Origin: a bacterium
Lineage (GTDB): Bacteria; UBA8248
Assembly (NCBI GenBank): GCA_965202625.1
Contig: CBDBBI010000010.1
Coordinates: forward strand, 1,019,050-1,083,049
Reading direction: 5' to 3'
DNA length: 64,000 nucleotides
Part shown: in pieces, positions 1,080 through 62,308 of the stretch
Numbering within the stretch: the first letter of the stretch is position 1
How the letters are laid out: every line of letters begins with the position of its first letter
Notes under the pieces: model-generated
The model's input: the letters and a program-made list of their open reading frames with translations, nothing else
Told to the model about the DNA's origin: nothing
Database searches by the model: none
Translations under genes and position numbers: made by a program

Positions 1080-3152
1080 TCAATTCCTCTCGAGCGCCCT
1101 TTTGATCGCCTGCGTCTCCGAGAGCGGCTCCTTGCAGATAAAATTCTCACATACATACACGGCGGCTCGTCCATTCACCATTGCTTTTCCACGAAGCAGG
1201 GGCACTGCGGCGTCCGCCTCTGCACCAGATAATTCTGACTTGAGGGCCAAAACCTTGTTCGGCGCGAAAGTGGAATCAACTGCTCTCAGAGCGGCGCGCG
1301 TGTCCTCGGAATCTCTCTCACCAACAATCGCCACCTCCATCGGGGTGTCGAGATGAAAGTCCAACGCGGCCAGCATCATGTGAAAGGCGGCCGGCGCGCG
1401 GGCGAGATACTCACCGAAGGCGCGCAAAACCCCCTCGCCGCGCACGGCGAACTCCGCCCGCCCCGAGAGCCTAGCCAATTTCAGCAAACCTAGCGCCGCC
1501 ATGGAATTTCCGCTCGGTATGGCACCATCCTGCGTCATCTTCCTCCTGACGATGAGTCGTTCATGATCGTGGGCGGTAAAGAAAAATGCGCCCTCCTCAT
1601 CATCCCCGTATCGCGCTATCATCTCCTCAGCCAAGTCCGAGGCCGCGCGGATCCACCTGGGCTGAAAGCTCGCCTCATATAAATCCACCAAGCCCACGAG
1701 CAGAAAAGCGTAATCATCTAGATAGGCGTTCAACTTACTCACTCCTTCCCGATGGCTCCTCAGCAGTCCCCGCCCATCGCGCATGTTGCCCAAAATAAAA
1801 TCCGCCGCCTCGGTCGCCGCTTCAAGGTAGGGGGAGTGTTCCAGAATCCTGCCCGCCAAGGCCATTGAGCCCACCATGAGTCCGTTCCAGCTCGTGAGAA
1901 TTTTATCATCAAGACCAGGCTTCACGCGCCGCTCTCGTTCGGCAAAGAGTCTTGTGCGTCCCCTTTGCAAGATAGCGAGAAGTTTATCTTCCTCCATTCC
2001 CTCTTTCTCGGCGAAAACGCGAGGTGGGTCTTGGATGAACAAAGGGGAGGTTTTTCCCTCAAAGTTCCCCTCCTCCGTCACGCCGTAAAATCGGCAGAAC
2101 ACGCTTCCCTCGCCCTCTCCAAGAATTTCCTCTATCTGTTCGGGACGCCATACGAAGTATTTCCCCTCCTCCCCCTCGCTGTCCGCATCCTGGGCGGAGT
2201 AAAACCCGCCCATCGGACTGGTCATCTCGCGCAAAACGTAATCCAGGGTATCGGCCGCCACAGAGCGATAAAACGTGCTTCCCGTCGCCTGATACGCTTC
2301 AAGATACACTCTAGGCAAAAGCGCGTTGTCATAAAGCATTTTTTCAAAATGGGGAATGAGCCAGTAGTTATCCACGCTGTATCGATGGAATCCACCACCA
2401 AGCTGATCGCACATCCCACCGAGGGCCATCCTTTGAAGCGTCGTCTCAACAATCTTCATCAATTCCTGAGATTCCGACTGCCTCCACCTTCTCAAAAGCA
2501 ACATCAACGCCATTGAGGGCGGAAATTTCGGGGCGCGTCCGAAGCCGCCCCAGGAAGCGTCGAATCGTTCCTTCAACTCCTTGACAGCCTGATCTATCCA
2601 CTCCGCCCTTAAGTCGCCCGTTACGGGCGCGACGTCTCCCATTTGACCCAAATTTGCCGTTATCTTCTCCGCGCTGTCCCGCAAATCCTCTTGTCGCGTT
2701 CGATAGACCTCGGCCAGCCTCAGGAGCACGTTTTTGAACCCGGGTCTCCCCCATTTGTCATCCGGCGGAAAATATGTCCCACAGAAGAAAGGACTCAAAT
2801 CCGGCAGCAAGAAAACGCTCATGGGCCAACCACCTTGGCCCGTCATCATCTGGACCGCCTCCATATATATCCCATCGATATCCGGCCGCTCCTCGCGGTC
2901 CACCTTGATGGAGACGAAATGGTCGTTCAAAATTTTGGCGATTTCCTCATTCTCGAAACTCTCATGCTCCATCACGTGACACCAATGGCAAGCCGAGTAG
3001 CCGACGGACAGAAAGATGGGCTTGTTCTCCTCTCTCGATTTGCGAAGCGCATCCTTCCCCCAAGGGTGCCAATTCACCGGGTTATACTGATGCTGCAAAA
3101 GGTAGGGACTTGTCTCCTGCGCGAGACGATTTTTTGGACGGGGCTGACTCAT
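1080..3152 (-). CDS. thioredoxin-domain protein of the YyaL/DUF255 family (N-acylglucosamine 2-epimerase-like C-terminal domain)
   Basis: The ORF is 691 aa from the internal Met MSQPRP. Motifs [17 protein letters not shown] and [18 protein letters not shown] are typical of DUF255. Confidence 0.85.
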
Positions 3153-3302
3153 GAATCCCTCATGCGAACAACCGAAAGAGCGGCAGCGGCAAAAAACGCC
3201 TAGTGACGGGGCGTGGAACAATGACGAGAAAACAATGCGGGCTAAGGAGCGAGTCGCGCGTGGGTCTCCACGCGCCCATATCCTCCAATGTGCTGTATGT
3301 CG

Positions 3303-3729
3303 TCACCCCAGTTCTCCACCCAAGTCGTGGACACTAGATGCAACCGAGGGCAATGCCTCGGGTTCTCCCCCGCGCAAAGTATCGCAGTAGGTGCCCTTCG
3401 AGCCTGCGCCCCAGAGGTTCCATGCGCGGATGAAATTCTCATCACGTCTCATCTTCATCCAATCAATCAACACGTCCTCGCTCGTCAAAAAATTCCGAGT
3501 TTTCCGGATGTCACACTTGCCGGCGAATCCCTCTCCTCCATAGACGTAGGGGATATCTCTCGACGAGAGGAAGAATCCCACCCGTTATTTGCCATATTGT
3601 GAATTCCTCCTACTGCAGGGGATACCGGCGCGCATCCACCACGCCCACAACGCTATGTTCGCCGAGAAAGTTCAAAAATTTCTCCGCATCATAGTTGTTG
3701 TGGCCTATCGTCCAGAGGGAATATTTCAA
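3303..3729 (-). pseudogene. DUF488-family gene disrupted by an in-frame TAG and a frameshift
   Basis: The N-terminal part (TTG start) reads LKYSLWTIGHNNYDAEKFLNFLGEHSVVGVVDARRYPLQ followed by TAG. The downstream part, in a different frame (ORF 3303..3581), reads ...DIPYVYGGEGFAGK.... The start overlaps the stop of the M20 gene (TTGA). Confidence 0.4.
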
Positions 3730-10236: not shown

Positions 10237-10291
10237 GACCACAAGTTTAGGCGTCACCTCAGCTCAAACAGACAAAATTCGCAGGAGAGCC

Positions 10292-11050
10292 GATGCCCAC
10301 TCTGATTCAGAAAGACAAAGGCGTGTTCTCCACCTTGAAATTCAACCGAAAAGACGTTCGCAACGCCATCAACGAAGAAATTATGCAGAGTCTCTCCGAT
10401 ACCATCCACACCCTCAAGGCATCGCGCGGGCGATGAGGCGTTCTGCTCGGGCGGCGACTTGAAATGGCTTCAAACTTTTGAATCCCGTAAGGCGTAAGGA
10501 CGGCATGTCCATGAGTAGGCGCATGCAGACGATACTGAGACGCCTTTCTTCATTGCCGGTACCCGTCATCGCCATTCTGAATGGATACGCCCTCGGCGGC
10601 GGCGCTGAAATCGCCATGGCCTGCGATATACGGATCATGGAGGAACACGCCTATATACGCTTCAAGCAAGCGCGCGTGGGCCTCATGCCGGGTTGGGGAG
10701 GCAGAGGGCGGGTCCTCCGTGCGGTCGGCTATGGACGAGCGATCGAATTATTGACCACTTGCAAAGACCTCCACCCTGAAGACCCACTGGAAATGGGACT
10801 CGCCAACACCGTTGTCCCCAAGGGAGACGGTCTCCGCGTCGCTAAAGCGATGGTGGGGGAAATCGCTAAAAGCGCTCCCGGAGCGATTCGCTCTCTGAAG
10901 GAATTACTCTTGTTCGGCCTGGAAAATACACAGGAGAAAACAGCGAGTGCAGAATCATCGCTGCTTGCGGAGCTTTGGACGTCTCAGGATCATGGCGAGA
11001 CGATAAAAGCATTTTTTGAGAAGCGAAGCCCCGACTTCAAGGGAAGATAA
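10292..11050 (+). pseudogene. enoyl-CoA hydratase/isomerase (crotonase) gene interrupted by two frameshifts
   Basis: Three collinear pieces lie in frames 2, 1 and 2: MPTLIQKDKGVFSTLKFNRKDVRNAINEEIMQSLSDTIHTLKASRGR, then DEAFCSGGDLKWLQTFESRKA, then ...PVPVIAILNGYALGGGAEIAMACDIRIMEE...GLMPGWGG.... Together they are a recognisable crotonase fold. Confidence 0.6.
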
Positions 11051-35306: not shown

Positions 35307-36056
35307 TCATGCAGACCGCCTCGTCTGCTCTGCTGAAATATCCATAATACCCTGAGATTTCAATACCTCATCTCTGAGGACTACGCCTACAACGTCCAAG
35401 ACCTGCTTTAACGCAATGCCATTATTATAGGCGGACATTTGCATTGCTTCCCGTGGTATTTTTTCCGTTAAATCATCAAGGAGATTTTCTTGGGCATACG
35501 CAAAGCACATCTCCTGTATTTCGTAGGCATTCTTGTCTTTACCGCTTATTTGTTCCTTTAATGCTTCTGCATATCCCGAAATCCATTCGTTGATTTGTAT
35601 TTCTTCAGCAACCCTTTCCCCCAGTTCGCTGAGCCTGCGCGGGCTATCGGATTCCGTTGTTTCGGGAGGGGGCAATCGCGAAAAAATAGATTTTATGTCT
35701 GCTCGTATTTCCTTTACCTCATTTTTGATTTCGCTTCGTATTGCATTTGTTTCATTTTTGATTTCCGCTCGTATTGCATTTGTTTCATTTCTGATTTCGC
35801 TTCGTATTGCATTTGTTTCATTTCTGATTTCATCTCGTATTTCTTTTGTTTCATTGCTGATTTCATCTCGTATTTCTTTTATCTGATCTCGAATTTCTCC
35901 CATAAATGTCGATATGCTCTCTCCCTTTTCGTTTACTTTTGCAATCCATGTTGCAGCGCGTATTGCAGCCCATATTGCAAGAGCAAAGAGGACGACAATA
36001 ATGAGTAATATATTTCCTTTGAAGGCTTCAAGGAGAAATACGTTGATGGAGCTCAT
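35307..36056 (-). CDS. membrane-anchored protein containing about six tandem 11-aa repeats (NETNAIRSEIR-type coiled-coil)
   Basis: The 249-aa protein has an N-terminal TM helix, then the repeat block EIRDEIRNETNAIRSEIRNETNAIRAEIKNETNAIRSEIKNEVKEIRADIK. The gene's GC content is about 45%, against about 62% for the genome. Confidence 0.6.
   Translation of the reverse strand: MSSINVFLLEAFKGNILLIIVVLFALAIWAAIRAATWIAKVNEKGESISTFMGEIRDQIKEIRDEISNETKEIRDEIRNETNAIRSEIRNETNAIRAEIKNETNAIRSEIKNEVKEIRADIKSIFSRLPPPETTESDSPRRLSELGERVAEEIQINEWISGYAEALKEQISGKDKNAYEIQEMCFAYAQENLLDDLTEKIPREAMQMSAYNNGIALKQVLDVVGVVLRDEVLKSQGIMDISAEQTRRSA
35694..35895. repeat. 33-bp tandem repeat (about 5.5 copies) inside the gene above
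   Basis: Successive copies read gatttcgcttcgtattgcatttgtttcattttt, gatttccgctcgtattgcatttgtttcatttct, gatttcgcttcgtattgcatttgtttcatttct, gatttcatctcgtatttcttttgtttcattgct and further degenerating units. Confidence 0.75.
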
Positions 36057-38846: not shown

Positions 38847-38876
38847 CCTTCATCCACCCCCTTGGTGCCGACCGCC

Positions 38877-39197
38877 TTAACGGTTTCCCTCTTTGCATCG
38901 AACGCGGTAATAGATTCGGCTGCCCGCAGCGCCGAGGTTATATTCCCGAATCACTTTCCGCTCGAAAATCTCGTATCCACCGGGGCACAAGTCGTTGTCA
39001 GTGAGGTAGAGCTTGAGCCTCGATAGTCTGTTGGATTCAGCGGAGGAGCTGTCATGCGGAGTGAGCGGGCCAGCTACCGCCTCGTACTGAAACGTCCCGT
39101 CGGACAATGGCCTGAATCTGGTATCGAATATAGTGTCGTGCGCAGAACAACCCATTAATGCCAGGAACGCAAAAACGGCCAGGCCTTTCGCAAACAT
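38877..39197 (-). CDS. small lipoprotein, copy 1 of a tandemly duplicated pair
   Basis: The start MFAKGLAVFAFLALMGCSAHD is preceded by GGAGGAGG. The protein is about 70% identical to copy 2 and has conserved Cys (DLCPGGYE, RVRCKEGNR). Confidence 0.55.
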   Translation of the reverse strand: MFAKGLAVFAFLALMGCSAHDTIFDTRFRPLSDGTFQYEAVAGPLTPHDSSSAESNRLSRLKLYLTDNDLCPGGYEIFERKVIREYNLGAAGSRIYYRVRCKEGNR

Positions 39198-39255
39198 CGG
39201 CTCCTCCTCCCTCAAAAAGTCCGCGCCATCCAGCACACCTCTCCCAAAACCTCCG

Positions 39256-39335
39256 CACCGCGCGGAGGCGGGATGGGCTCCCACGCCGGATGATCGCTCT
39301 CCAGAATCCACCGCCCCTCCACCCACACCGCGCGC
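39256..39335 (-). pseudogene. orphan fragment of the 3' end of the S24 repressor gene (copy a)
   Basis: The 80 bp are near-identical to 39756-39835 inside the intact repressor gene and would encode ...WVEGRWILESDHPAWEPIPPPR. The fragment is part of a ~485-bp tandem duplication unit. Confidence 0.6.
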
Positions 39336-39363
39336 GGCCACAGCGAACAGGCTGCAGACCGCC

Positions 39364-39690
39364 TTAACGGTTTCCCTCTTTGCATCGAACGCGGTAATGG
39401 ATTCTGTGGGCCAAAGCGTCGGAGCCATATTCCCGAATCGCTATCCGCTCGAAAACCTCGTATCCACCGGGGCACAAGTCGTTGTCAGTGAGGTAGAGCT
39501 TGAGCCTCAATAGTCTGTTGGCTTCAGCGGAGGCACTCTTCGGCGGATAGAACGGGCCAGCTACCGCCTCGTACTCAAACGTCCCGTCGGACAATGGCTT
39601 GAATCTGTGATCGTATCCAGTGATGCGCGCAGTAGTACAACCCATTAATGCCAGGAACGCAAAAACGGCCAGGCCTTTCGCAAACATCAT
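39364..39690 (-). CDS. small lipoprotein, copy 2 of a tandemly duplicated pair
   Basis: The start MMFAKGLAVFAFLALMGCTTARI is preceded by GGAGGAGG. The gene lies directly 3' of the repressor gene on the same strand. Confidence 0.55.
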   Translation of the reverse strand: MMFAKGLAVFAFLALMGCTTARITGYDHRFKPLSDGTFEYEAVAGPFYPPKSASAEANRLLRLKLYLTDNDLCPGGYEVFERIAIREYGSDALAHRIHYRVRCKEGNR

Positions 39691-39701
39691 CTCCTCCTCC
39701 C

Positions 39702-40478
39702 TCAAAAAGTCCGCGCCATCCAGCACACCTCTCCCAACACCTCCGCCCCGCGCGGAGGCGGGATGGGCTCCCACGCCGGATGATCGCTCTCCAGAATCCA
39801 CCGCCCGTCCACCCACACCGCGCGCTTGACCAGCAAGCCATCCTCGCCGCGCACCACGAATATCCGTCCGCTGTGCAGGTGCTTTTTTTTCATGTCAATG
39901 AGAATGGAGCAACCCGCCGGCAGCGTCGGCTCCATGGATTCGCCCGCCACGCGGATGATGCGGCACTGGGCGGCCTCCAGCCCTTGCTCCCTCAGCCACT
40001 CCGCGCGAAACGCCAGACGTCCCGCCACCGTCTCGCTGTCCGCCTCCGCACCGCCTCCCGCCGCCGCGTCCACCTCCACGATTTCCACGTGACGGAAATG
40101 GAAAGCGTCCGTATTTCCGGCGGCCTCCGATTCTGCCGCGTCGCGCAATTTGTCCAGGGTACCGGCCGCATCGCGCAAGCGGGAGAGCTCCGCATCGAAA
40201 GCCTCCTCCAGCATTCGCTTCGCCGAGCCCTCCTGGAGTGCCGCCGCCCCTGATGCATCGGGCACCCCTGATGCACCGGGTGGGGCGACGAGAGGAAATT
40301 CAATGCCCAGAGCTTCGCAAATCTGGGCGGCGCGCCCGATAGAAGGTTGCTGTCCGTCCAGGATTCCCTGGAAACTTCGCACAGGAATCCCCGCACGCAT
40401 TGCCGCCGCGCGTACGGACTCACCATTCCTTGCGAGGTGATCACGAACATCTTTCACAAACCGTTCCCTTACTCCCAT
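39702..40478 (-). CDS. XRE-family HTH repressor with C-terminal S24 (LexA/cI-type) peptidase domain
   Basis: Trimmed to MGVRERFVKDVRDHLARNGESVRAAAMRAGIPVRSFQGIL, which contains the HTH. The C-terminus ...RVAGESMEPTLPAGCSILID...LLVKRAVWVDGRWILESDHPAWEPI is the S24 Ser/Lys fold. Confidence 0.8.
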   Translation of the reverse strand: MGVRERFVKDVRDHLARNGESVRAAAMRAGIPVRSFQGILDGQQPSIGRAAQICEALGIEFPLVAPPGASGVPDASGAAALQEGSAKRMLEEAFDAELSRLRDAAGTLDKLRDAAESEAAGNTDAFHFRHVEIVEVDAAAGGGAEADSETVAGRLAFRAEWLREQGLEAAQCRIIRVAGESMEPTLPAGCSILIDMKKKHLHSGRIFVVRGEDGLLVKRAVWVDGRWILESDHPAWEPIPPPRGAEVLGEVCWMARTF

Positions 40479-40575: not shown

Positions 40576-40824
40576 ATGACGCCAAACCAGATCATCCACC
40601 TTATAGACGTCATGGCCGAGGCGACCGCCCGAAGCCCGCACACGCTCGCCCGCTACGCTGCCGGCTCCGGAGATTTCTACGCGCGCCTGAAGGTTGGACA
40701 CGACATCACGACCCGCCGCGCCGCGCGCGTCGTTCAATGGTTCTCCGATCAATGGCCCTCCGACCTGGAGTGGCCGTCGGACGTTCCCCGCCCTGTGCCG
40801 AAAGCGAAGGAGAGTGCCGCGTGA
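40576..40824 (+). CDS. small hypothetical protein divergent from the repressor (cro-like position)
   Basis: The ORF is 82 aa. The true start may be the internal ATG at 40612. Its stop overlaps the GTG of the next ORF (GTGA). Confidence 0.35.
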   Translation: MTPNQIIHLIDVMAEATARSPHTLARYAAGSGDFYARLKVGHDITTRRAARVVQWFSDQWPSDLEWPSDVPRPVPKAKESAA

Positions 40825-41579
40825 GCGGGTGCGATCTGCGGGTGATAACGGAGGAATCCCCCCCCGTTTCGCCGGCGAAACAGGCACACGAAGCGCCGCG
40901 GCCCCTCTTTCATGAAGGGCTTGGGCGGGATCGCTGGGCGGAGATCGGGCGCGATCTTTCCCACTGGGCGGAGAACACGCAATGGGAAATGGGAGAATGG
41001 GCTCTGTTTGGGGAGGCGTCTTTTGGCGAGAGGACGCTGCGGGAGGTGGCGTCCGGTCTGAAAATCAGCGCGGGCAAACTGTCCAACTGCCGACTGGTCG
41101 CCAAGAATTTCCCCGCGTTTCGCCGGCGAAACGCCTTGAGTTTTTCTCACCATCTCGAAGTGGCGCGCCTGCCGCAAGCGGAGGGCGACGAAATTCTCGC
41201 CCGCGCCGAGGCGGATGGATGGACGCGAGAGCAGATTCGGAAGGAAGCGCGCGAAGCGCGGGCGGCGGTGCTGGCGTGCCTGGTGCGCGAGAACGAGGCG
41301 CTTCGCGCGGAGAATGCGCGGCTCAAAACCACGCCGGCGGCGGCGAAGGATGCGGCGCGCGACCTGGAGAGACGCGCGAAGGCCGCCGCCCGAAAGGTGA
41401 GCGCGGCGTTTGCGGACCTCGCGCGGGTACTGGGCGAGGCGGGTGCATCGGCGGAAATCACAGGTTTGCACGGCAACGCGCGCGCGGCACTCGACGCGCG
41501 CCTGAAACGCATCGTGTGCTCGGCTGGAAGGGATGCGGCCGGCGTGCAGATGCGCTTCACTTTCGGGGCGGGCGAATGA
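40821..41579 (+). CDS. hypothetical protein with coiled-coil C-terminal half
   Basis: The ORF is 253 aa from the GTG at 40821 and has typical high-GC codon usage. Its stop overlaps the next ATG (ATGA). The longer track ORFs 40737 and 40982 are N-terminally over-extended. Confidence 0.4.
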   Translation: MSGCDLRVITEESPPVSPAKQAHEAPRPLFHEGLGRDRWAEIGRDLSHWAENTQWEMGEWALFGEASFGERTLREVASGLKISAGKLSNCRLVAKNFPAFRRRNALSFSHHLEVARLPQAEGDEILARAEADGWTREQIRKEAREARAAVLACLVRENEALRAENARLKTTPAAAKDAARDLERRAKAAARKVSAAFADLARVLGEAGASAEITGLHGNARAALDARLKRIVCSAGRDAAGVQMRFTFGAGE

Positions 41580-42235
41580 ATCCCCACGCCCGTGAAACCG
41601 CCCAGCAACCCTCTTTCATCGCCCTGGAAACGCCCGAAAAACTCCCTTGCAACGACCTGGAAACCGCCTGGAACGCCGCCACGGACGCCCAGAAAGAGCG
41701 CGCCGTCAAGCGGCTGCGTGCGGTCGAGCGTTCCGAGGCTTTGGCGGCGGAGGGGATAGTGCGCGCGGAGGCGGACGGAATAGCGGCACTTGAATGCGGC
41801 GCGTCCAAATCCGCCGTCGCCACCTGGCGGCGTCGCGCACGAGGTGCGGGGCGGGGAGATAGACTGCGCACGCTTCTTGACGCACCGGGGCGCGGACGGC
41901 CGCGTGCAGAATGGACGGGCACGGCGGCGGAGACGCTCTGGACGCTGTGGCGCACGGACTGGCTCCGAGAGGAAGCACCGGATGCGGCGGCGGCACATCG
42001 GCGGGTGGAGGCGGTCGCCCAGGCGCGGGGCTGGGAATGTCCGCCCCTCCAGGCGTTCACCCGCAGGGTGCGGCGCGAGGTTTCCCGCCGCGAAGTCGTA
42101 CGCGCGCGCAAGGGTGCCCTCGCCGCCATGAACACCTCGCCCCACCAGACGCGAAGCGTGGAGGCGGGATGGGCTCCCACGCCGGATGATCGCTCTCCAG
42201 AATCCACCGCCCCTCCACCCACACCGCGCGCTTGA
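41576..42235 (+). CDS. hypothetical protein whose C-terminus is read through an antisense copy of the repressor 3' end
   Basis: The ORF is 220 aa from the ATG at 41576 and shares a frame with the tail of track ORF 40982..42235. The last ~25 codons lie inside repeat copy c, so the gene may be 3'-truncated or fused. Confidence 0.35.
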   Translation: MNPHARETAQQPSFIALETPEKLPCNDLETAWNAATDAQKERAVKRLRAVERSEALAAEGIVRAEADGIAALECGASKSAVATWRRRARGAGRGDRLRTLLDAPGRGRPRAEWTGTAAETLWTLWRTDWLREEAPDAAAAHRRVEAVAQARGWECPPLQAFTRRVRREVSRREVVRARKGALAAMNTSPHQTRSVEAGWAPTPDDRSPESTAPPPTPRA

Positions 42236-42247
42236 CCAGCAAGCCAT
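42158..42247. repeat. third copy (c) of the S24-repressor 3'-end repeat, abutting the right boundary of the inserted element
   Basis: The sequence gaggcgggatgggctcccacgccggatgatcgctctccagaatccaccgcccctccacccacaccgcgcgcttgaccagcaagccatc matches 39756-39842. Confidence 0.65.
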
Positions 42248-42302
42248 CTCGGTAGAGGCACACGTCGGCTTTTGTTCTTGTTCAATAGTCGAAGTCCCTC
42301 CT

Positions 42303-51599: not shown

Positions 51600-51977
51600 T
51601 CAATATCCCTCGTCTATCACCTCTTTGAGCTGCGTGCACCCGGCGACCAGTGCCGTCATTCCGCAGGGGGGCAGCATGCACTCGAGCGCCTCTGTCGCCT
51701 CCTCGACCGTAGCGCCGAGCTGCAAGGCCTTTTTCAGGTGGTTCTTGATGCCCTCCGTATCAGAGGGGTCGCGCGAAGCGCTCGCCACGGCGATAAAAAG
51801 CTCCTTGTATTTCTCCGGAAACGGCCCCTCCTTCTTCATGATGTGGTTCTTGAGGTTCTCGTAGTTCTCCAGAAGGTCCGGGTCCACCTCGCACAAAAGC
51901 GCATAAGCAGGATAGATAAACCCGCGAGCCGCTTTCATGCGCTCATACAGCGCCCTGCCCCGCTCGCTCATCGCCAT
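51600..51977 (-). CDS. carboxymuconolactone decarboxylase (CMD) family protein
   Basis: Trimmed to MAMSERG. The short 4-helix CMD-like protein is 126 aa. Confidence 0.6.
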   Translation of the reverse strand: MAMSERGRALYERMKAARGFIYPAYALLCEVDPDLLENYENLKNHIMKKEGPFPEKYKELFIAVASASRDPSDTEGIKNHLKKALQLGATVEEATEALECMLPPCGMTALVAGCTQLKEVIDEGY

Positions 51978-52024
51978 CGTGAATCCTCCCAAGCGCCCTC
52001 GCCCGGCGGCGCATTGCTTCCCGC

Positions 52025-52795
52025 TTACGGATACACTTCCTTCTCCAGGACGGAAGCCTCATGTCCGGGCAGAATATATTCCTCCTTCGTCGCCCGGTTG
52101 ATGCACTTCCAAATGGAATCCACCGCGTCCTTCATGCTCGACATCTGGCCGGCGGGAACGCGCCGCTTGAGGCCCTCCTGAATCTGAATCACGTCGGCGG
52201 CGATCACGTAGGTACCGACGCGCGTCTCCACGGCGACGGAACAATGCCCCGGCGTGTGGCCCGGCGTGTGGAAATAGGTGACGCCCGGCACGATCTCGAA
52301 ATTATCCGTCCAGATGGGCTCGAAGATGATGCCCTGCTGTGCGACGACCGGCCAGCGGGTGTTGGGGTGAATCGGTGCGTCATAGGGTTTGGATTGCAGC
52401 GCGACCGGACAGACGGAGTATTGCAGCTCTTCCGCCCACACGTATTTGACGGCGTTGGTGAACAGGTCGCAGTTCTGGGAATGATCCCAGTGCAGGTGCG
52501 TGAGAATCAGAATGTCCACCTCCTCGGGCTTCCAGCCGGCACCCTCGAGCCGCTTCCTCACCCCCTGTTCGGGCTCCCTGCTGGCGGGCCAGGGCGCACC
52601 ACCGCGCTCGGGGTCCAGAAAGCTCGTGTCGACCACGATTTTCACGTCTTTTCCGTCGCGATCCTTCGCCCCCTCGATCATGTAGATGAAGGAGGGAATA
52701 GCGAGCTTCGTTCCGAAATTCGTCCAATACACCATGTTGGAATAATCCGTGTGAATGGTGCCGCAGTTCAGGGGACGGATGGTGAGATCTGGCAT
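52025..52795 (-). CDS. MBL-fold metallo-hydrolase (N-acyl-homoserine-lactonase-like)
   Basis: Trimmed to MPDLTIRPLNCG. The zinc motif is LTHLHWDHSQN, with downstream HTPGHTPGH. Confidence 0.75.
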   Translation of the reverse strand: MPDLTIRPLNCGTIHTDYSNMVYWTNFGTKLAIPSFIYMIEGAKDRDGKDVKIVVDTSFLDPERGGAPWPASREPEQGVRKRLEGAGWKPEEVDILILTHLHWDHSQNCDLFTNAVKYVWAEELQYSVCPVALQSKPYDAPIHPNTRWPVVAQQGIIFEPIWTDNFEIVPGVTYFHTPGHTPGHCSVAVETRVGTYVIAADVIQIQEGLKRRVPAGQMSSMKDAVDSIWKCINRATKEEYILPGHEASVLEKEVYP

Positions 52796-52912: not shown

Positions 52913-53512
52913 TCAGGTTCGCGCGGTTCGGGAGAAGCGCACCACCTCCCTCAGCGCATCGGGGCCTTCCGGCTCGGTCGCGTCAAGACCAAGAGCGATG
53001 TTCAGCCGATTGCTCATGTTGCGATACGCCACGGAGCCGATGATGTCCATCAGGTTCTCCTCGCTGAAGCCCACCTCGCGCAGCGCGTCCAAATCCGCCT
53101 CGCGCATCGCATAGTGATCAAGCGTGAGCTTCTCGGCGAAGGCGAGCATCGCCTTGTCCGCATCGTCGAGAACCGGAGAATTGTCCCTGTCCATTACCAC
53201 GGTCGCCACCTCCGCCATCGTGACGCCCTCGCCGCTTTCCGCACGGAAAGCCTGGCCATGGTTCATCGTTCAGCCGTAGCAGCCGCCAATCGTGGCCACG
53301 TAGTAGGAGAGGAGCTCCTCGCGCCTTCTGCCCAAAGTCGAATTGCCGCCATGCACGGCCATGTTCATCGTCTGGCGTCCGTTCAGCACCTCGGGACGGC
53401 GCGCCATAGCGAGCAGCAGACGGGGCACGGCGCCTCTTTTCTTACGTATGCCCTCGAGAATCCCTTTCGCGGGTTCTTGCGCCTCGTTCAGCCTTAAAGG
53501 GGATATCCACAT
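52913..53512 (-). CDS. AhpD-like/CMD-family peroxidase-related protein with in-frame UGA at the CxxC position (candidate selenoprotein, Cys-x-x-Sec)
   Basis: Track ORFs 53270..53512 and 52913..53266 share one frame and are separated only by a TGA (53270-53272) and one codon. The sequence reads ...IGG-C-Y-G-[TGA]-T-M-N-H-GQAF and fits the AhpD-core C-x-x-C-x-x-x-H with TGA at the second Cys. Confidence 0.6.
53234..53251 (-). promoter_or_regulatory. candidate SECIS-type hairpin 18 nt downstream of the in-frame UGA
   Basis: On the mRNA this reads GCUUUCC-GUGC-GGAAAGC, a perfect 7-bp stem with a 4-nt loop containing G and U. Confidence 0.4.
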
Positions 53513-53540
53513 TCTGTTTTCTCCTCAACGCCGATATCAT

Positions 53541-54593
53541 TCACTCGATTGTAGCCGCGCGCTCTTTCTGAAACGCGGGCATCACCTCTTTTGAAAACCT
53601 CTCCAGGGAGAGAATCGCCTCGTCCTGGGGTATGCCCCGGAGAACGAACAGCATGACGTGATTCACCTTGAACTCCGACTGGAGACGCTTGAGATCGGCA
53701 ATCACCTTCTCTGGCGGACCGATGACGCCGCCCCCCTCGATGACCTCGCGGATGTTGACGTCGTAGCTCCAGTTGCGCTTGAGGGCCTCTTTCTCCTCAA
53801 TGGACATCTCGATGGAGTTCACCGCGCTGCGGTAGGAAAGATACCAGGATTCCGAGGGCTCGATCTGCTTCCAGGCGCGCTCGGGATCGTCGCAAACGTG
53901 CACGTGGTGGGCCATGAGGGCGGGATAATCGTCCGGGTTCCCCCCGCGCTTCCTCACCGCCTCGTGAAACAAGCCCATTTTTTCCAGATACGCCTCGGGC
54001 CCCTTGAAGGTGCCCGAGGCCATGACGTTAAAACCCCTCTCTCCAGCAAAGGCATAGGTTTCGGGGCTCGTGCCGGCCAGCCAAACGGGAGGACGCGGCT
54101 TCTGAATCGGTTTGGGGAATATCTCCGCGTCAATGCAGCTGTAATGCTTTCCGCGAAAGGTGAGGCATTCTCCCTCCAGAAGGCGGGTCAGTACCTCAAT
54201 GCCCTCCTGCATCTTCTCTCTGCTGTCGGTGGGAGAGACGTCAAAGCCCTGAAACTCCTTCGGCTGGGAGCCTCGGCCTATGCCCAGCTCCAGGCGTCCG
54301 CCGCTGAGCACGTCGGCGAGAGCGGCCTGCTCGGCCAGGCGCACCGGATTGTGGAAGGGCATGATGCAGATGGCGGTGCCCACCCTGATCCTCTTCGTTC
54401 TTTGCGCGATGGCGAGGGCGACCATGAGCGCGTCCGGGCACATGCCCACGCGCGAGAAATGGTGCTCCGCCAGAAACACGGCCTCGTAGCCCAGCGCATC
54501 AGCCGCCTCGCACTGGACGATCAGCTGCTCGAACTCATGCTGATAGGTCTCGCCTTCCTGACACGCCGGAATATAGAAAAGAGAGAATTTCAT
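53541..54593 (-). CDS. LLM-class (luciferase-like) flavin/F420-dependent oxidoreductase
   Basis: The 350-aa protein has a TIM-barrel LLM signature (AVFLAEHHF..., GRLELGIGRGS). Confidence 0.8.
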   Translation of the reverse strand: MKFSLFYIPACQEGETYQHEFEQLIVQCEAADALGYEAVFLAEHHFSRVGMCPDALMVALAIAQRTKRIRVGTAICIMPFHNPVRLAEQAALADVLSGGRLELGIGRGSQPKEFQGFDVSPTDSREKMQEGIEVLTRLLEGECLTFRGKHYSCIDAEIFPKPIQKPRPPVWLAGTSPETYAFAGERGFNVMASGTFKGPEAYLEKMGLFHEAVRKRGGNPDDYPALMAHHVHVCDDPERAWKQIEPSESWYLSYRSAVNSIEMSIEEKEALKRNWSYDVNIREVIEGGGVIGPPEKVIADLKRLQSEFKVNHVMLFVLRGIPQDEAILSLERFSKEVMPAFQKERAATIE

Positions 54594-54631: not shown

Positions 54632-55030
54632 TCACGCACCCATGGTGAACGCTTTTCTCACGCGTATTCGGTAGATGACGCGCACCTGGCCCGGCTGGCG
54701 GTTCGGATAGACGTCCTTGTCCAGATACTTCTTCGACAAGGCGTCGATGTGCTCCTCCGCTCCCTCCTCGCTGATCTCCACAACCTCGCCCTGAAGCCCC
54801 AGCCAGCGATAGAGATTTTCCGGATCGACGATAGCCATCGACACCCGGGAGCGGGAGCGCATGTTGACGTCCTTCAATCGACCCCTGGCGGAATTGATTC
54901 GGATGAGATCGCCCTCCGTATCGAACCAGATGGGTGAGACCTGGGGCGAGCCGTCCTTGTTCTGGGTACCCAGATACAAAAGGGCCTTGGTGTCGAGAAT
55001 GCCGATGTGCGACTGCGGTATCTGTAGCAT
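54632..55030 (-). CDS. PPOX-class (pyridoxamine-5'-phosphate-oxidase-like) F420/FMN-binding protein
   Basis: Trimmed to MLQIPQSHIGILDTKALLYLGTQNKDGSPQVSPIWF, a typical PPOX split-barrel N-terminus. Confidence 0.7.
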   Translation of the reverse strand: MLQIPQSHIGILDTKALLYLGTQNKDGSPQVSPIWFDTEGDLIRINSARGRLKDVNMRSRSRVSMAIVDPENLYRWLGLQGEVVEISEEGAEEHIDALSKKYLDKDVYPNRQPGQVRVIYRIRVRKAFTMGA

Positions 55031-55086: not shown

Positions 55087-56061
55087 TCACGCGCACCTGG
55101 GCAAAACCTCCTCGGTGAACATTTTGAGGGAGTCGTCGAAGTCCTGAACGGGAGGGTCGATCATGATGCTCTTCACCCCATAGGATTCGATCTCCTGAAT
55201 GCGCGCGACGCACTCCTCCGGCGTGCCCGTGATGGTGAAGCGATCCAGAATGTAGTCGGTGATGAGGGGGACGTGCTTGGGGTCGCGCCAGTTGCGCACG
55301 TCGAAATTGTCCAGGAGGTTCTGAATTTCGGACTTGAATTCGTGCGGAACGGAATCAAGCGTCATGCGAAAATTATGGTGTGCGCGATTCGCCACCCGCG
55401 CCCGCACCTTTTCTCTCGCGCGGGTGCCGTCGCCGTCCACGGAAACGATCGCCCCAAAAATGACGTCCATCTCGCCGAGAGAGGCATCGCGGCGCACCAG
55501 CCCCTCGTTCAAATGCCCCAAAACCCATTCCACCGTCTCTTGATAGACGCCTGAGCCCACGATGACGCCGTCTGCGATCTCGCCGGACATGGCGAGCGTC
55601 CTGGGCCCCTCGGCGGACGTATAGATGGGGATTTCGCGCGCACACCACATTTTCACGTTGACGCCCTCGGCGTATTCCACCGTCTCGCCGCGCGTGAACG
55701 CCCGAACGTTCGCTATGGACTCCCGCATTCTGGCGAGCCGGGCCATCTTTTTCCCCAGCGTATAGACGGGCGTATCCCCCGAGCCTATGCCGAACATGAC
55801 GCGCCCGCCGGACAGCTCATCCAGCGTGGCGACGGCACTCGCCGCCACGCTGTCGTCGTGGAGTACGGGGTTCGTCACGCCGGGGCCGATTTTCACCTTC
55901 TCGGTGTGCTCAATCGCCAAGGCGAGGGCGACGTTGTGATCCCGACAGGTGAGGTGGCTCTCCGCTATCCATACCTGCTCGAAGCCGTTGTCCTCGGCGT
56001 ATTTCGCCCGCTCCGCCAAGAGCCGGATATCGTCGGGCACCAGATGAAGACTAAAACGCAT
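55087..56061 (-). CDS. LLM-class F420-dependent oxidoreductase
   Basis: Trimmed to MRFSLHL. Motifs WIAESH and GGRVMFGIGSGD are present. Length is 325 aa. Confidence 0.8.
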   Translation of the reverse strand: MRFSLHLVPDDIRLLAERAKYAEDNGFEQVWIAESHLTCRDHNVALALAIEHTEKVKIGPGVTNPVLHDDSVAASAVATLDELSGGRVMFGIGSGDTPVYTLGKKMARLARMRESIANVRAFTRGETVEYAEGVNVKMWCAREIPIYTSAEGPRTLAMSGEIADGVIVGSGVYQETVEWVLGHLNEGLVRRDASLGEMDVIFGAIVSVDGDGTRAREKVRARVANRAHHNFRMTLDSVPHEFKSEIQNLLDNFDVRNWRDPKHVPLITDYILDRFTITGTPEECVARIQEIESYGVKSIMIDPPVQDFDDSLKMFTEEVLPRCA

Positions 56062-56596
56062 TCCCAACGCCTCCCCCATTGTCAGACAAGAGAAAAAACC
56101 TCAAAAGCGGCCCCCATGCGCTCCCACCGGCGCGGCCTCGCTCCCCTGCGCCCGACAGCGAGATACTCCCCGTGTTTGGTGCGCTTCAAAGCATTGCTCC
56201 CCATCGTTCGCATCGCACGCAGCACCGCCCGCGTTTTTGACGGCATCATCAAAGGCGATGCCCGGCATACCAGACGCGCGAACAGCCCGGCGCATCCGCC
56301 GGAAGGCTCCCCTCGCCCATCTCCTCCGGGCGATACAAGACGTGAAAGGAGGAAAATCCATTCGGCCATCCCTGGTTCCCGCGCGCTGAGGGCGGCGTTG
56401 ACAGATTCCCTTTCGGCGTCCACAAGGACTCCGACGCCATGAGCGTGGAAAGGGGTTTTCAGAGCTCCCGCATACGGGTTTGAAAGTTATAATGCCGACA
56501 TCATCGCAATCGCGTCAAGGTTGGAGCGTGAAGTTTGCAGATTTCCTTTGAGGACATATTCTCGATGCGGCATACGCGCATCTCGCCGAGGTTATC

Positions 56597-58528: not shown

Positions 58529-59475
58529 ATGAACCGCCTGTTTTATGGGGACAATCTTCAGATTATGGGAGAATTGCCTCCAAATAGCGTTGACCTCATC
58601 TATTTAGACCCGCCATTCAACTCGAACAAAAACTACAACCTCATGTATCGGGACATGGTGGGCCGTCCCGTTTCGGAACAAATAGAGGCGTTCTGCGACA
58701 CATGGGAAATGGACGCCGAGAAGGAAGAGATCGCCCGGAAAATGCCGGTCCCTTATGCGAGAACAAGGGATCGAGGATTACTACGTCGATTTCTGGCGGC
58801 TCTGGATCAAGGCTTTGCGGCACACCCAGCCGCGCCCTCGCCTATCTCTCCTACATGTCGGAACGGCTTGCCGAGGCGCGCCGCCTCCTCAAGCCCACAG
58901 GCTCCATCTACCTGCATTGCGACCCGACCATGAGCCATTATCTGAAGGCGGTGATGGATGACGTTTTCGGCGTCAAGAATTTTAGAAACGAGATTATTTG
59001 GAGCGGCATTCCGCACGACCTCTCCAGTGCGCGGAAGCTCGCGCAGGACAAACCCTTCGACTTCGAGAAATGGGCGATTTGCCGAATCCCCGGGCTCGCG
59101 CCAAACGCCAGGCAGGTGGGCGACGGGGGAATCGACGGACGTGGCCTGCTTTTGAACGCGCCCGACGATCACGATTCCCGCCTGGTACTGGCACAAGTCA
59201 AGGGTGGAAAATTCCAGGCGAGCGGGTTGCGGGATTTTCTGGGCGTCATGGAAAGGGATCGCGCCGCCATGGGCGTATTCATCACCCTGAACAGCGCGAC
59301 CTCTCCCCATGCGCACACCGAAGCGGGGCGAAAGGGAAGCATCCGCATGGGCGCGTCTCAATATCCGCGCGCGCAATTATGGTCGATAGACGATCATTTC
59401 AGAAAGAATCAGCCGCACATGCCGCCCCTCGCCGACCCTTACACGGGCAAGGAAATGCAGCAGCCCCTGTTTTGA
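58529..59475 (+). pseudogene. N6/N4 DNA methyltransferase (PF01555-type, DPPF...TGSIYLHCD) fused to an Mrr-like PD-(D/E)xK endonuclease domain, frameshifted
   Basis: Frame A reads MNRLFYGDNLQIMGELPPNSVDLIYLDPPFN...AFCDTWEM. Frame B (ORF 58702..59475) reads ...ALAYLSYMSERLAEARRLLKPTGSIYLHCDPTMSHYLKAVMDDVFGVKNFRNEIIW...VGDGGIDGRGLL...LAQVKGGK. At least one frameshift lies near 58740-58790. Confidence 0.6.
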
Positions 59476-59494
59476 CAATACGAAGGGAGATGAC

Positions 59495-59761
59495 GTGATA
59501 TGGTTCGCGGAATTTATCGATTCAAGCGGAAAGTTCGTCGCGTTCGGCGATGATCCCGAAGAGATGCCCGTCCACAAGGAACAGCGGAACGGCGGCCTCT
59601 ATCCGACGCCCATGACCTTCCCCTCGTGTCTGAAGTTTCTCTGGGGAGCGGATGAGGTGGCGCTGCCCCGCAAGGTCACCGAGCAGGAAATCCTGAATCG
59701 CTTCGCCGATCCCGATCATGAAGAAGACTGGGAGCGCGAACTGCGGCGCCGAACGACCTGA
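59495..59761 (+). CDS. small hypothetical protein (MTFPSCLKFL family), paralog of 61004..61204
   Basis: The 88-aa protein starts MIWFAEFIDSSGKFVAFGDD and contains MTFPSCLKFLWGADE, shared with the paralog at 61004..61204. Confidence 0.4.
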   Translation: MIWFAEFIDSSGKFVAFGDDPEEMPVHKEQRNGGLYPTPMTFPSCLKFLWGADEVALPRKVTEQEILNRFADPDHEEDWERELRRRTT

Positions 59762-60007
59762 CGTTCTCGCCAACGGGGACTTTCCCGATTCTTTGGCGCG
59801 CTATCTGACGCCGCATTCCCTTGCCCAGCGCTGGACGTTCCCAGATCGCCCTCCGTTGTCTGGCGCACTATCTGACGCCTCTGACGCCATCACCTCGCGC
59901 TGGCCATGCTTCGCGCCTGTCCGTTATTTCCTTGGGAAATTTTGTTGATTTGTCGCCAATCGGATAGCGTTGGATTCGCCGTTTTCGCGTTGACGCAAGG
60001 CGCGGTT

Positions 60008-60302
60008 CCGAAATCCAAGACCTTCTGATGCGAAAACGGCCGACTCCCCGGAGGGGAGCCGGCCGCCTTAAGCCGCTCTTATCGCCGCTGACCGCCCACT
60101 TCCTCCATCATGCCCCACTTGACGACGGTCACCCTCTCGAACTTCTCAAAAATGAATTTCTCCATCACGAATCCCACCAAAGCGATGGCCGCGATTCCCA
60201 CGAGCATGAAAGCCGTATCCAGATCTTCACGGCTGTCGAATATGGCGTATCCCAAGCCCCAATCACTCGCGGCCACCATCTCTCCGGCGATGCCCGCGCG
60301 CC
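60008..60302. repeat. displaced direct-repeat copy of the 3' end plus downstream hairpin of the ABC permease gene (native copy 61366-61662)
   Basis: About 295 bp are near-identical to the native copy and encode the ...AASDWGLGYAIFDSREDLDTAF...MMEEVGGQRR C-terminus (track ORF 60079..60279). Confidence 0.75.
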
Positions 60303-60457
60303 GAAGCGGGACAAAAGGGGAACATCCGCATGGGCGCGTCCCAATATCCGCGCGCGCAATTATGGTCGATAGACGATCATTTCAGAAAGAATCAGCCGCA
60401 CATGCCGCCCCTCGCCGACCCTTACACGGGCAAGGAAATGCAGCAGCCTCTATTTTG
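60303..60457. repeat. second copy of the methyltransferase-Mrr gene 3' end (native copy 59321-59475), fused directly to the permease-3' repeat
   Basis: The sequence gaagcggg...catccgcatgggcgcgtc.caatatccgcgcgcgcaattatggtcgatagacgatcatttcagaaagaatcagccgcacatgccgcccctcgccgacccttacacgggcaaggaaatgcagcagcc is repeated. Confidence 0.75.
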
Positions 60458-60544
60458 AGCTGACGCGCTGGCGGGGCGCGGATGGCGGGACAACGCGCTG
60501 ATGCGCGGGCTTTATTCGCACTTTTAATATGTGATACAAGCAAA

Positions 60545-60578
60545 GGGCTCCGGGTAGAGACCGGAGCCCTTTTGATTT
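60545..60578 (+). terminator. rho-independent terminator
   Basis: A hairpin gggctccgg-gtagaga-ccggagccc is followed by ttttgattt. Confidence 0.55.
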
Positions 60579-60680
60579 GCCCGTTCGCTTGCTGACAAGG
60601 TCGCTCACGGGATATGACCGCTGCCCCCAACATATCCTTTGCAAAGCGAACCTGTCAACTTCATGGGAGGGGTTCGCTTT

Positions 60681-60950
60681 ATGGACGAGAAGACGCTTCT
60701 TTGCCGCGTTTGCAAGATCGAGCCGAAACGCGTCGAAGAGGAAGGAAAGCCTGATCTGATACGTTGTCCCCGGTGCGGCGCATTCGGTAATTTTGATGAA
60801 GTCCTTGAAGCGGCTTCCAGGCATTTGACAGGCAGCATCATAAACGACGGGTTCAATCGCCGCGCGCGTAAATCCAGGAGATCGAAGGTTATGCGCTACG
60901 TCCTCGGCAATCGCAAAAATATCACTGCCCCCGCTTTCATCTTTCAATGA
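60681..60950 (+). CDS. small zinc-ribbon protein (CxxC...CxxC)
   Basis: The 89-aa protein reads MDEKTLLCRVCKIEPKRVEEEGKPDLIRCPRCGAF and has a basic C-terminus. The GGAGGGG RBS is upstream. Confidence 0.4.
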   Translation: MDEKTLLCRVCKIEPKRVEEEGKPDLIRCPRCGAFGNFDEVLEAASRHLTGSIINDGFNRRARKSRRSKVMRYVLGNRKNITAPAFIFQ

Positions 60951-61003
60951 TGATTCCTCCTTGACGCGCGCTAGACGATCTCCCGACCGAAGCGTTTCCT
61001 GAT

Positions 61004-61204
61004 CTATTTCGCCGTCGTCTTGGCGGCATCGGTGATGTCGTCCGCACCGTGCAGGAATTTGAGGCAGGAAGGGAACGTCATCTCCGTTCTGGAATAGTCG
61101 GGACCGCCGCCGACGCCCAGGCTGTAGACGGGCAGGACGTTCCTGTTTTCTCCAAACGCGATGAATTTATGGTCGCCGTCCGTGAATTGCACCAGATAGA
61201 TCAT
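61004..61204 (-). CDS. small hypothetical protein (MTFPSCLKFL family), paralog of 59495..59761 in opposite orientation
   Basis: The 66-aa protein reads MIYLVQFTDGDHKFIAFGEN...MTFPSCLKFLHGADD. Confidence 0.4.
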   Translation of the reverse strand: MIYLVQFTDGDHKFIAFGENRNVLPVYSLGVGGGPDYSRTEMTFPSCLKFLHGADDITDAAKTTAK

Positions 61205-61438
61205 TCGTATTTCTCCAAAATGGACTTATTGAACACGTCGGCGGCGAAGTTGGCGTTTTCCGCGCGGGAAACGCCCGACGGATTCATGGCGATTTCGGAG
61301 ACGAGGGAGAACTTGATGGGACTTAGGGGATCTGCACCAAAGCGTCGAGGGCCAGGGGGCGCAGTTCCGAAATCCAAGACCTTCTGATGCGAAAACGGCC
61401 GACTCCCCGGGAGGGGAGCCGGCCGCCTTAAGCCGCTC

Positions 61439-62308
61439 TTATCGCCGCTGACCGCCCACTTCCTCCATCATGCCCCACTTGACGACGGTCACCCTCTCGA
61501 ACTTCTCAAAAATGAATTTCTCCATCACAAATCCCACCAAAGCGATGGCCGCGATTCCCACGAGCATGAAAGCCGTATCCAGATCTTCACGGCTGTCGAA
61601 TATGGCGTATCCCAAGCCCCAATCACTCGCGGCCACCATCTCTCCGGCGATGCCCGCGCGCCAGGCGCGCGCCAGGCCGATGCGGACGCCTGAGAGAATG
61701 AACGGCAGCGAACCTGGGAAGATGACCTTCCAGAACAAGGTCATCCCCTCCGCGTTCATCGACTTCGCAGCCCGTATCCAGATCGGATTGATGGTTTTCA
61801 CCCCCGTCCACGTGGAGGAGATGGCGGGCAGTGCCGCGGCGAACGCGGTGATGAAAATCATGGTGGTATTGCCGAGGCCGAACCACAAAACGAGAATCGG
61901 GCTCCAGGCCAGTGCCGGTATGGGCAGAAGCATGCTCAGGATGGGGATCATGAATTTCTCGAACCAACCGACGCGGCCCATGGCGATGCCGATGGCTATC
62001 CCCACGAAGCCGGCGATGATCATTCCCACCATAATCCGCCAGGCGGTGTGATAGGAGTGCACGCAGAGAACGCAGGTGGTATCGCCGGACTTGAGGAAAG
62101 TGACTTCATAAAAACGGTGCAAAATGGGCAGTGCCCGCGGAAAGAGCGCGGGCTCGTTCACAATCCAGGCGATGGACTCCCAAATCACCAGCACCGCGAT
62201 AAAACTGGGAATGTTGTCCCTGATCCACATCCACATTTTTTCCTGCGCGGTGTATTCCGTCGGCAGCCTGACGTCATCCCTTCTGATTTCATCCGTCGCG
62301 GTGGTCAT
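61439..62308 (-). CDS. ABC transporter permease (NitT/TauT family, TauC/SsuC-like)
   Basis: The 289-aa protein has six TM segments and an EAA-like loop region. It is the likely partner of the ATPase at 57494..58246 but lies on the opposite strand, 3.2 kb away. Confidence 0.8.
   Translation of the reverse strand: MTTATDEIRRDDVRLPTEYTAQEKMWMWIRDNIPSFIAVLVIWESIAWIVNEPALFPRALPILHRFYEVTFLKSGDTTCVLCVHSYHTAWRIMVGMIIAGFVGIAIGIAMGRVGWFEKFMIPILSMLLPIPALAWSPILVLWFGLGNTTMIFITAFAAALPAISSTWTGVKTINPIWIRAAKSMNAEGMTLFWKVIFPGSLPFILSGVRIGLARAWRAGIAGEMVAASDWGLGYAIFDSREDLDTAFMLVGIAAIALVGFVMEKFIFEKFERVTVVKWGMMEEVGGQRR

Follow-up and report, generated by a model that had tools for sequence, protein, structure and literature searches.

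Does an in-frame UGA codon end the translation of an AhpD-like gene, or is it read as selenocysteine (Sec)? The question is raised by two open reading frames (ORFs) that share one frame on the minus strand of a 64,000-nucleotide (nt) stretch of bacterial DNA (assembly GCA_965202625.1, contig CBDBBI010000010.1, positions 1,019,050 to 1,083,049; GTDB lineage UBA8248). This whole stretch is called the window, and all positions below are counted from its first letter unless another locus is named. A preliminary description of the window had proposed that the two ORFs, which are separated by a TGA and one further codon, belong to a single selenoprotein gene with a Cys-x-x-Sec motif. Our comparison of sequences gives good support to the view that the two ORFs are one gene (52913..53512, minus strand) for an AhpD-like thiol/selenol oxidoreductase of the TIGR01926/COG2128 family, and the UGA at 53272-53270 is very probably decoded as Sec, giving C-x-x-U.

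Structure of the gene and family of its product

The coordinates and sequences given in the preliminary description were all checked on the minus strand and proved correct to the base. The joined gene starts with ATG at 53512-53510 (minus strand), and a Shine-Dalgarno-like motif, GAGGAG, can be read from the sequence at 53521..53526 (minus strand) with an 8-nt spacer to this ATG. The first ORF (53512..53273) has 80 sense codons and its product ends with ...YYVATIGGCYG. It is followed by the UGA (53270..53272, minus strand), by a single ACG codon for Thr and then by an internal ATG (53266-53264), which opens the second ORF (53266..52913). The second ORF has 117 codons, lies in the same frame as the first and ends at TGA 52915-52913. 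No comparable Shine-Dalgarno motif could be read from the sequence ahead of the internal ATG. When the UGA is read through, the gene would encode 199 residues, with Sec at codon 81 and with TGA 52915-52913 as the true stop. The product around the UGA would be ...YYVATIGG-C78-Y-G-[UGA81]-T-M-N-H85-GQAFRAESGEG....

Family searches were carried out with the joined protein, in which Cys was substituted at the UGA. The joined protein matched TIGR01926.1 ("peroxidase-related enzyme", NCBIfam) with 113.1 bits against a cut-off of 81.8 (E = 1.3e-32), and the match covered residues 2-176 of the 199 and profile positions 2-173 of the 178. The match to Pfam CMD was weak (23.9 bits). Relatives of solved structure were found in the PDB (3c1l, 6k40, 2pfx, 2prr and 2oyo; E = 1.5e-18 to 3e-12), and their alignments crossed both halves of the gene. 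The column of the UGA was Cys in 9/9 full-length homologues of our alignment A1 and in 43/43 of a larger full-length set, and the codon at this position was TGC or TGT in 27 genomic loci of Cys-type homologues. E66, C78 and H85 were invariant in alignment A1. With the UGA they form E66-x11-C78-x2-U81-x3-H85, which matches the AhpD signature E-x11-C-x2-C-x3-H; in AhpD of Mycobacterium tuberculosis (MtbAhpD) the proton relay consists of Glu118, Cys130, Cys133 and His137 (PMC3141380). The earlier proposal, namely that the gene is AhpD-like and that the UGA takes the place of the second Cys in a CxxC motif, is therefore borne out by the TIGR01926 score above the cut-off and by the full AhpD signature, and the alignment to Cys-containing homologues that had been suggested as a check placed Cys opposite the UGA in both sets.

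Conservation of the UGA and selection on both halves

A protein search yielded 83 homologues, encoding contigs were fetched, and one scan of the GTDB species-representative genomes was added. Among the 32 best-scoring homologues, 30 were C-terminal fragments of 109-154 residues, mostly 116-117, and all retrieved fragment homologues began with M-N-H, i.e., gene callers had cut the gene at the identical place. In the nucleotide sequences, TGA occupied the identical codon in every orthologue with 81-88% identity (loci L001-L004 and L010-L025). It was also kept in two loci of lower identity (L007 and L026), as well as in two loci with about 50% identity and another gene neighbourhood (L005 and L009). 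Remote C-x-x-TGA members were found in Binatia, 'delta proteobacterium' metagenome-assembled genomes (MAGs), Chloroflexota, SAR324, Thermodesulfobacteriota and Natroniella, and C-x-x-TGC/TGT members in Alphaproteobacteria, Gordonia, Dehalococcoidia and Thermoplasmata. The closest named relatives in the GTDB scan were the MAGs 'Nitrospinota bacterium COS4_bin_23' and 'uncultured Nitrospinaceae bacterium' (L018 and L019). Since all orthologues and many distant relatives have TGA at this same codon, the split at the UGA is not due to chance.

Among distinct orthologues, 17/17 kept the TGA. The ratio of nonsynonymous to synonymous substitution rates (dN/dS; Nei-Gojobori) in these 17 orthologues was 0.124 for codons 1-80 and 0.160 for codons 82-199, with a synonymous divergence (dS) of about 0.4-0.58. 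Because dN/dS is low on each side of the UGA, both halves are maintained as protein in frame.

A conserved hairpin directly downstream of the UGA

According to the preliminary description, a perfect 7-bp hairpin with the 4-nt loop GUGC lies 18 nt past the UGA. We found the same sequence (GCUUUCC-GUGC-GGAAAGC) at the same place (53234..53251, minus strand); the hairpin starts 18 nt and its loop 25 nt after the UGA. Folded alone, it has a free energy of -8.9 kcal/mol. The seventh pair (C-G) is present only in the window and in L026; in the other orthologues the stem is 6 bp long and the loop is CGUGCN. In the 17 distinct orthologues (dS about 0.4-0.6) the arm codons GCT/TTC/CGT...GAA/AGC were invariant and the loop codon 91 alone varied, being GCT in 15, GCG in one and GCA in one. 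In the confident genes of the window, GCT accounts for 6% of Ala codons, CGT for 8% of Arg, GAA for 29% of Glu and AGC for 27% of Ser, i.e., the hairpin is built of disfavoured codons, which were then frozen. Codons 82-93 had the lowest synonymous diversity of any 12-codon stretch of the gene (0.049 vs a mean of 0.227; permutation p = 0.00045). Synonymous change was suppressed from codon 82 to about codon 114 (53171..53269, minus strand), where sliding diversity was 0.05-0.15 vs the same mean, and this stretch probably shows how far the RNA-level constraint extends past the UGA.

Hairpins were also scored by criteria of the selenocysteine insertion sequence (SECIS) type, with numerical values that we take to be those of the bSECISearch model: the stem had to be perfect and no shorter than 6 bp, the loop had to measure 3-10 nt, carry G within its first two positions and start 16-37 nt after the codon, and the free energy had to be -5 kcal/mol or lower. 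On these assumed values, the distance of the loop from the UGA and the G in the loop of the window hairpin are as expected of a SECIS. Hairpins passing all of them were found in 44 of 48 distinct TGA-type sequences vs 8 of 27 of the Cys type (Fisher p = 4e-8, which is optimistic because the sequences are related). We conclude from these patterns that an RNA structure, apparently of bacterial SECIS type, is under selection directly downstream of the UGA, and the stem-loop GCUUUC(C)-(C)GUGC(N)-(G)GAAAGC at 53251-53234 is most likely the SECIS.

Other explanations of the UGA

The UGA might be read as a standard amino acid (Cys, Trp or Gly), through either a reassigned code or a Sec-independent suppression. 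Genetic codes with a sense UGA exist, and genes of the Sec machinery were not seen in the window. However, TGA is the commonest stop codon of the window and ends 17 of its 34 confident genes, so that the genetic code is standard. Moreover, the UGA falls exactly on the redox Cys position and precedes a conserved hairpin in which synonymous change is constrained; this combination is the mark of Sec, not of leaky suppression, and the family is catalogued as a selenoprotein family. We consider this explanation very unlikely.

Slightly less probable again is a stop-restart pair, in which translation would terminate at the UGA and re-initiate at the ATG 3 nt on, so that the AhpD fold would be made from two chains without residue 81. 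UGA-ACG-AUG does look like such a junction and public gene callers annotate it in this way; the internal-ATG codon is GTG in L007 and L026, which could initiate as well. However, the same codon is ATA (Ile) in L016, which cannot initiate, a Shine-Dalgarno motif is wanting before the internal ATG, and in distant TGA members a start codon is absent there (e.g., U-G-I-G-H and U-T-N-A-H). Met, Val or Ile in this column fits the residues of the Cys-type homologues, which have mainly Thr or Val there. Furthermore, the break would delete the second redox residue of an intact centre, a residue which is Cys in all 43 full-length homologues.

That a Cys codon (TGC or TGT) has been mutated or misread to TGA, as in a pseudogene or a base-call error, is next to inconceivable: a disrupted-looking enoyl-CoA hydratase gene in the window does indicate that errors occur in either the assembly or the genome, but all orthologues, which come from independent assemblies and samples, share the TGA at this codon, a pseudogene would drift to a dN/dS of 1 and gather stops and indels instead of keeping 0.12-0.16 at a dS of 0.4-0.58, and a pseudogene or base-call error is excluded because both halves are kept as protein in frame.

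The family helix and points against selenocysteine decoding

Most TGA-type members outside the clade of the window have another, stronger hairpin, which is formed by the H-G-x-x-(F/L)-R codons. It occurs, e.g., as ACGGAGAG-UUU-CUCUCCGU and, with the register shifted, as ACGCGGAG-GUN-CUCCGCGU. This family hairpin has a G-first triloop that lies 17-18 nt after the UGA, and its two registers, GGAGAG-UUU-CUCUCC and GCGGAG-GUN-CUCCGC, show some compensatory changes. In our alignment A2, which covers 48 nt from the UGA and includes the outside-clade members L005, L009, L027 and L033-L082, 80% of the cells of the family helix pair vs 29-57% with the partners slid, and 4 of the 8 pairs changed on both sides. 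The helix of the window clade, scored family-wide, was paired in 62% vs 42-52% in slid controls, a score that comes mostly from other clades and is uninformative. In the window itself, columns 13-17 and 27-31 of alignment A2 form a weak alternative helix, CAUGG...CCGUG, with 5 bp and a 9-nt loop (53242..53260, minus strand). The H85 codon is CAT or CAC in the orthologues and gives U-G or C-G with G29 (remnant CAYGG/CCGUG).

Several observations weigh against Sec decoding with the help of the downstream hairpin. The hairpin of the window clade is about 7 nt further from the UGA than that of most other members, and it is mutually exclusive with the 5-bp remnant, so that the two structures compete. 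Its arms never vary in the clade and there is consequently no covariation; their conservation is also confounded with that of the peptide A-F-R-A-E-S. A 66-nt stretch folded with -23.3 kcal/mol, which is not exceptional (z = -0.96, with 28 of 200 shuffles as stable); because it is not significant vs shuffles, fold energy was set aside as evidence. No Rfam family matched the hairpin region, either in the whole window at gathering thresholds or in 53150-53300 at E <= 10. As for the Sec machinery, Pfam found no SelA, SelB or SelD domain in 40 of the 59 candidate ORFs of the window (40 of the 44 with more than 150 codons), and ARAGORN and Rfam found only a tRNA-Leu in the window and no tRNA-Sec, in agreement with the earlier remark that selA, selB, selD and tRNA-Sec are not visible there. 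In 27 related loci, searched as loci only, ARAGORN did not find tRNA-Sec either. A search for same-frame ORF pairs with a TGA between them and for redox-motif contexts revealed no second selenoprotein candidate in the window; applied to the flanking sequences of the relatives, it likewise singled out only the AhpD-like gene. Finally, the link between the window organism and the selenoprotein-rich UBA8248 lineage is drawn from names, not from phylogeny; in BSepDB, similarly labelled MAGs (GTDB phylum UBA8248) contain 48-54 selenoprotein genes each and are among the ten richest bacteria (PMC13326102).

Weak Rfam matches to SAM-IV, ssnA and a viral pseudoknot in 53150-53300 (E <= 10) were regarded as noise.

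The two hairpins may be connected. We tentatively suggest, with the balance leaning slightly to the other side, that the SECIS has moved in the clade of the window: the family helix would have decayed to 5 bp, and a new conserved hairpin 7 nt downstream would have taken over its role. If true, this relocation (loop 24-25 nt vs 17-18 nt after the UGA) would be a case of SECIS turnover inside a coding sequence. On this reading, the family would have gone further still in the same lineage, with the U-x-x-U paralogue described next.

A paralogue with two UGA codons in related genomes

Six loci outside the window (L027-L032) contain a paralogue with 46-53% identity and the motif ...A-A-H-G-G-[TGA]-Y-G-[TGA]-A-M-N-H-G..., located at 3226-3237 in these loci (match 3001-3567). 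Both TGAs are kept in the 6 loci. The paralogue has a good Shine-Dalgarno motif and an ATG upstream, and its dN/dS is 0.13 in the part ahead of the redox motif and 0.25 in the part behind it. It occurs on the same assemblies as orthologues of the window gene: OZ253442.1 (L010 and L032), OZ244799.1, OZ244713.1, CBDBZU010000004.1 and JAJDYR01. Its predicted product is a candidate U-x-x-U protein, in which a diselenide would be possible. A UxxU form of the AhpD-like family was found neither in the tables of selenoproteome reviews, which give UxxU for other families only (PMC2398784; PMC13188914), nor by text search. The selenoprotein-rich UBA8248 MAGs and this two-UGA paralogue in the genomes of relatives are indirect support for Sec decoding.

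Proposed decoding and catalysis

On the preferred reading, i.e., UGA as Sec, the stem-loop in the coding sequence would recruit SelB-GTP-Sec-tRNA(Sec) as the ribosome nears the UGA, and Sec would be inserted without termination. As a rule, Sec takes the place of the catalytic nucleophile, and a Sec at the attacking position of the motif would agree with this rule. In MtbAhpD, Cys133 is exposed and attacks Cys61 of AhpC, whereas Cys130 is partly buried (PMC6626918). Because the second Cys is the attacking residue in MtbAhpD, Sec would most likely occupy the attacking and not the resolving position. The preliminary description had placed the UGA at a "resolving Cys"; the second-Cys position holds, but the resolving role most likely does not, since Cys133 is the attacker in MtbAhpD (PMC6626918). 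By analogy with MtbAhpD, the selenolate of U81 may attack a peroxide, a sulfenic acid or a disulfide as its oxidised substrate or partner. Resolution of the adduct by C78 would then give a selenenylsulfide for a cellular reductant to recycle, and E66 and H85 could act as a proton relay around the C78-Y-G-U81 redox centre.

Gene neighbourhood

The gene lies in a cluster of co-oriented genes, all on the minus strand. This cluster begins with a gene for a luciferase-like monooxygenase of 330 residues (55087..56079; Pfam Bac_luciferase, E = 9.1e-51; also supported by synteny). It is followed by a gene for a PNPOx-like flavin/deazaflavin-binding protein (54632..55030; Pfam PNPOx_N), which has about 132 residues when counted from an internal ATG, compared with 131-144 residues in relatives. 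The upstream neighbour of the selenoprotein gene encodes a second luciferase-like monooxygenase of 350 residues (53541..54593; Pfam Bac_luciferase, E = 2.9e-63), and the gap between the two genes is 28 nt. The downstream neighbour encodes a metallo-beta-lactamase-fold protein (52025..52795; Pfam Lactamase_B) of 256 residues from ATG 52795, the same length as in relatives. The last gene encodes a small CMD-family protein of 130 residues without CxxC (51600..51992; Pfam CMD, E = 2.9e-10), and this gene is kept in L001-L004. The co-oriented cluster as such is kept in L001, L003, L004 and L007 but not in the distant L005 and L009, and the selenoprotein may serve the pathway of this conserved cluster. 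No AhpC/peroxiredoxin (AhpC-TSA) domain, to which a canonical AhpD is coupled, was found among the 40 window ORFs scanned. Because no peroxiredoxin gene is nearby, the gene is not part of a canonical AhpC/AhpD pair.

At the end of the first luciferase-like gene (stop at 55087-55089; e.g., L011:1426), the sequence reads ...E-E-V-L-P-R-C-A/V-TGA and is followed by the in-frame PNPOx-like open frame in nearly all orthologous loci. We considered 'LPRCV-TGA' as a second Sec site and rejected it: the residues past the stop are not conserved and the stretch is intergenic, as expected of an ordinary stop.

Other features of the window

The enoyl-CoA hydratase gene at 10268-11050 (plus strand) looks broken. 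Its N-terminal ~70 residues can be read only if the frame is switched twice over about 150 nt, and in the called ORF the match to Pfam ECH_1 begins at profile position 72; either it is a pseudogene or the assembly has indel errors there. A tandem array at 35691-35888 consists of 33-nt AT-rich units similar to TTTGATTTCGCTTCGTATTGCATTTGTTTCATT, detected as five overlapping 66-nt copies with 33-nt spacing. It lies within about 2.5 kb (33.9-36.4 kb) without any ORF of the type usual in the window, which is rich in G and C at third codon positions. A tandem duplication of about 490 nt (38866-39842; copies 87-97% identical) adjoins a Peptidase_S24 (LexA-like) gene. A third, 93-nt copy lies 2.4 kb off at 42156-42248, and the copies bracket ORFs without Pfam match at 40737-42285. 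Further repeats of 164-257 nt with 95-99% identity occur in 58702-61662 (59312-59475/60295-60458 and 59999-60302/61358-61662). They flank a DNA-methylase/Mrr-like ORF set between the ATPase and permease genes of an ABC transporter. These two transporter genes are adjacent in L001 and L003, and the DNA-methylase/Mrr-like ORF looks like a lineage-specific insertion.

Consequences for annotation

All public gene calls examined split the gene into an unnamed ORF of 80 residues and an unnamed ORF of 116-117 residues, without a Pfam match. Because of this split, the protein is invisible in the standard annotations of the lineage. The two ORFs should be merged and flagged as a selenoprotein. The gene leaves what is known of Sec decoding and of AhpD chemistry unchanged. 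However, its conserved neighbourhood could guide a search for the substrate of a family that is functionally uncharacterised.

Comparison with known systems

AhpD-like (COG2128) proteins with C-x-x-U were introduced in 2005 as a new family of selenoproteins, with 27 sequences from the Sargasso Sea (Zhang, Fomenko and Gladyshev; PMC1088965). In the Global Ocean Sampling (GOS) survey, 'AhpD-like 1' (COG2128, CxxU) was fourth of 51 families with 299 selenoprotein sequences (PMC2398784), and the CxxU form is also listed in selenoproteome surveys (PMC13188914). The preliminary description had stated that the family is known from anaerobic bacteria. This is not what the literature reports: its members were described in marine metagenomes (Sargasso Sea and GOS), not specifically in anaerobes (PMC1088965; PMC2398784).

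The window gene resembles this CxxU family in three respects: the same hidden Markov model, a single predicted Sec at the second residue of the CxxC motif and a short hairpin in the coding region with G in its apical loop. It differs from most of the TGA-type members examined in that the loop of its clade is 24-25 nt after the UGA, and theirs 17-18 nt. It is also unlike the known CxxU members in its location in a clade-specific cluster with two luciferase-like genes and PNPOx, metallo-beta-lactamase and CMD genes. A further difference is the host lineage, which is labelled Nitrospinota and is probably the same as GTDB UBA8248.

With MtbAhpD the predicted protein shares the signature E-x11-C-x2-C/U-x3-H on the helix-turn-helix core (PMC3141380). 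However, the similarity is at the superfamily level only, the domain arrangement is another, Sec would replace Cys, and genes for AhpC or the lipoamide system do not adjoin. Closer are the solved 'uncharacterized peroxidase-related proteins' 3c1l (Mlr4105), 6k40 (Deinococcus AhpD-like DR_1765), 2pfx, 2prr and 2oyo, which are homologous over nearly the full length (query residues 7-176) and whose CxxC-xxx-HG aligns with C-Y-G-U-T-M-N-H-G of the window protein. Nevertheless, these proteins have Cys at the UGA position and are only about 30% identical, and the window clade has a longer C-terminal tail.

Two models for selenoproteins of the AhpD superfamily, NF041238 ('AhpD_rel_CFYUT alkylhydroperoxidase-related (seleno)protein') and NF053654 ('YciW-related (seleno)protein'), likewise have C-x-x-U followed by Thr. 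The window protein scored far below the cut-offs of both, with 27.6 bits against 175 for NF041238 (profile positions 207-337 only) and 46.3 bits against 310 for NF053654. Unlike the window protein, those of NF041238 have about 357 residues and an extra domain. The window gene is, as judged from its predicted product, a new and unannotated member of an established and abundant selenoprotein family, and it is mildly new in the apparent relocation of a SECIS-type hairpin within its clade and in its conserved gene cluster.

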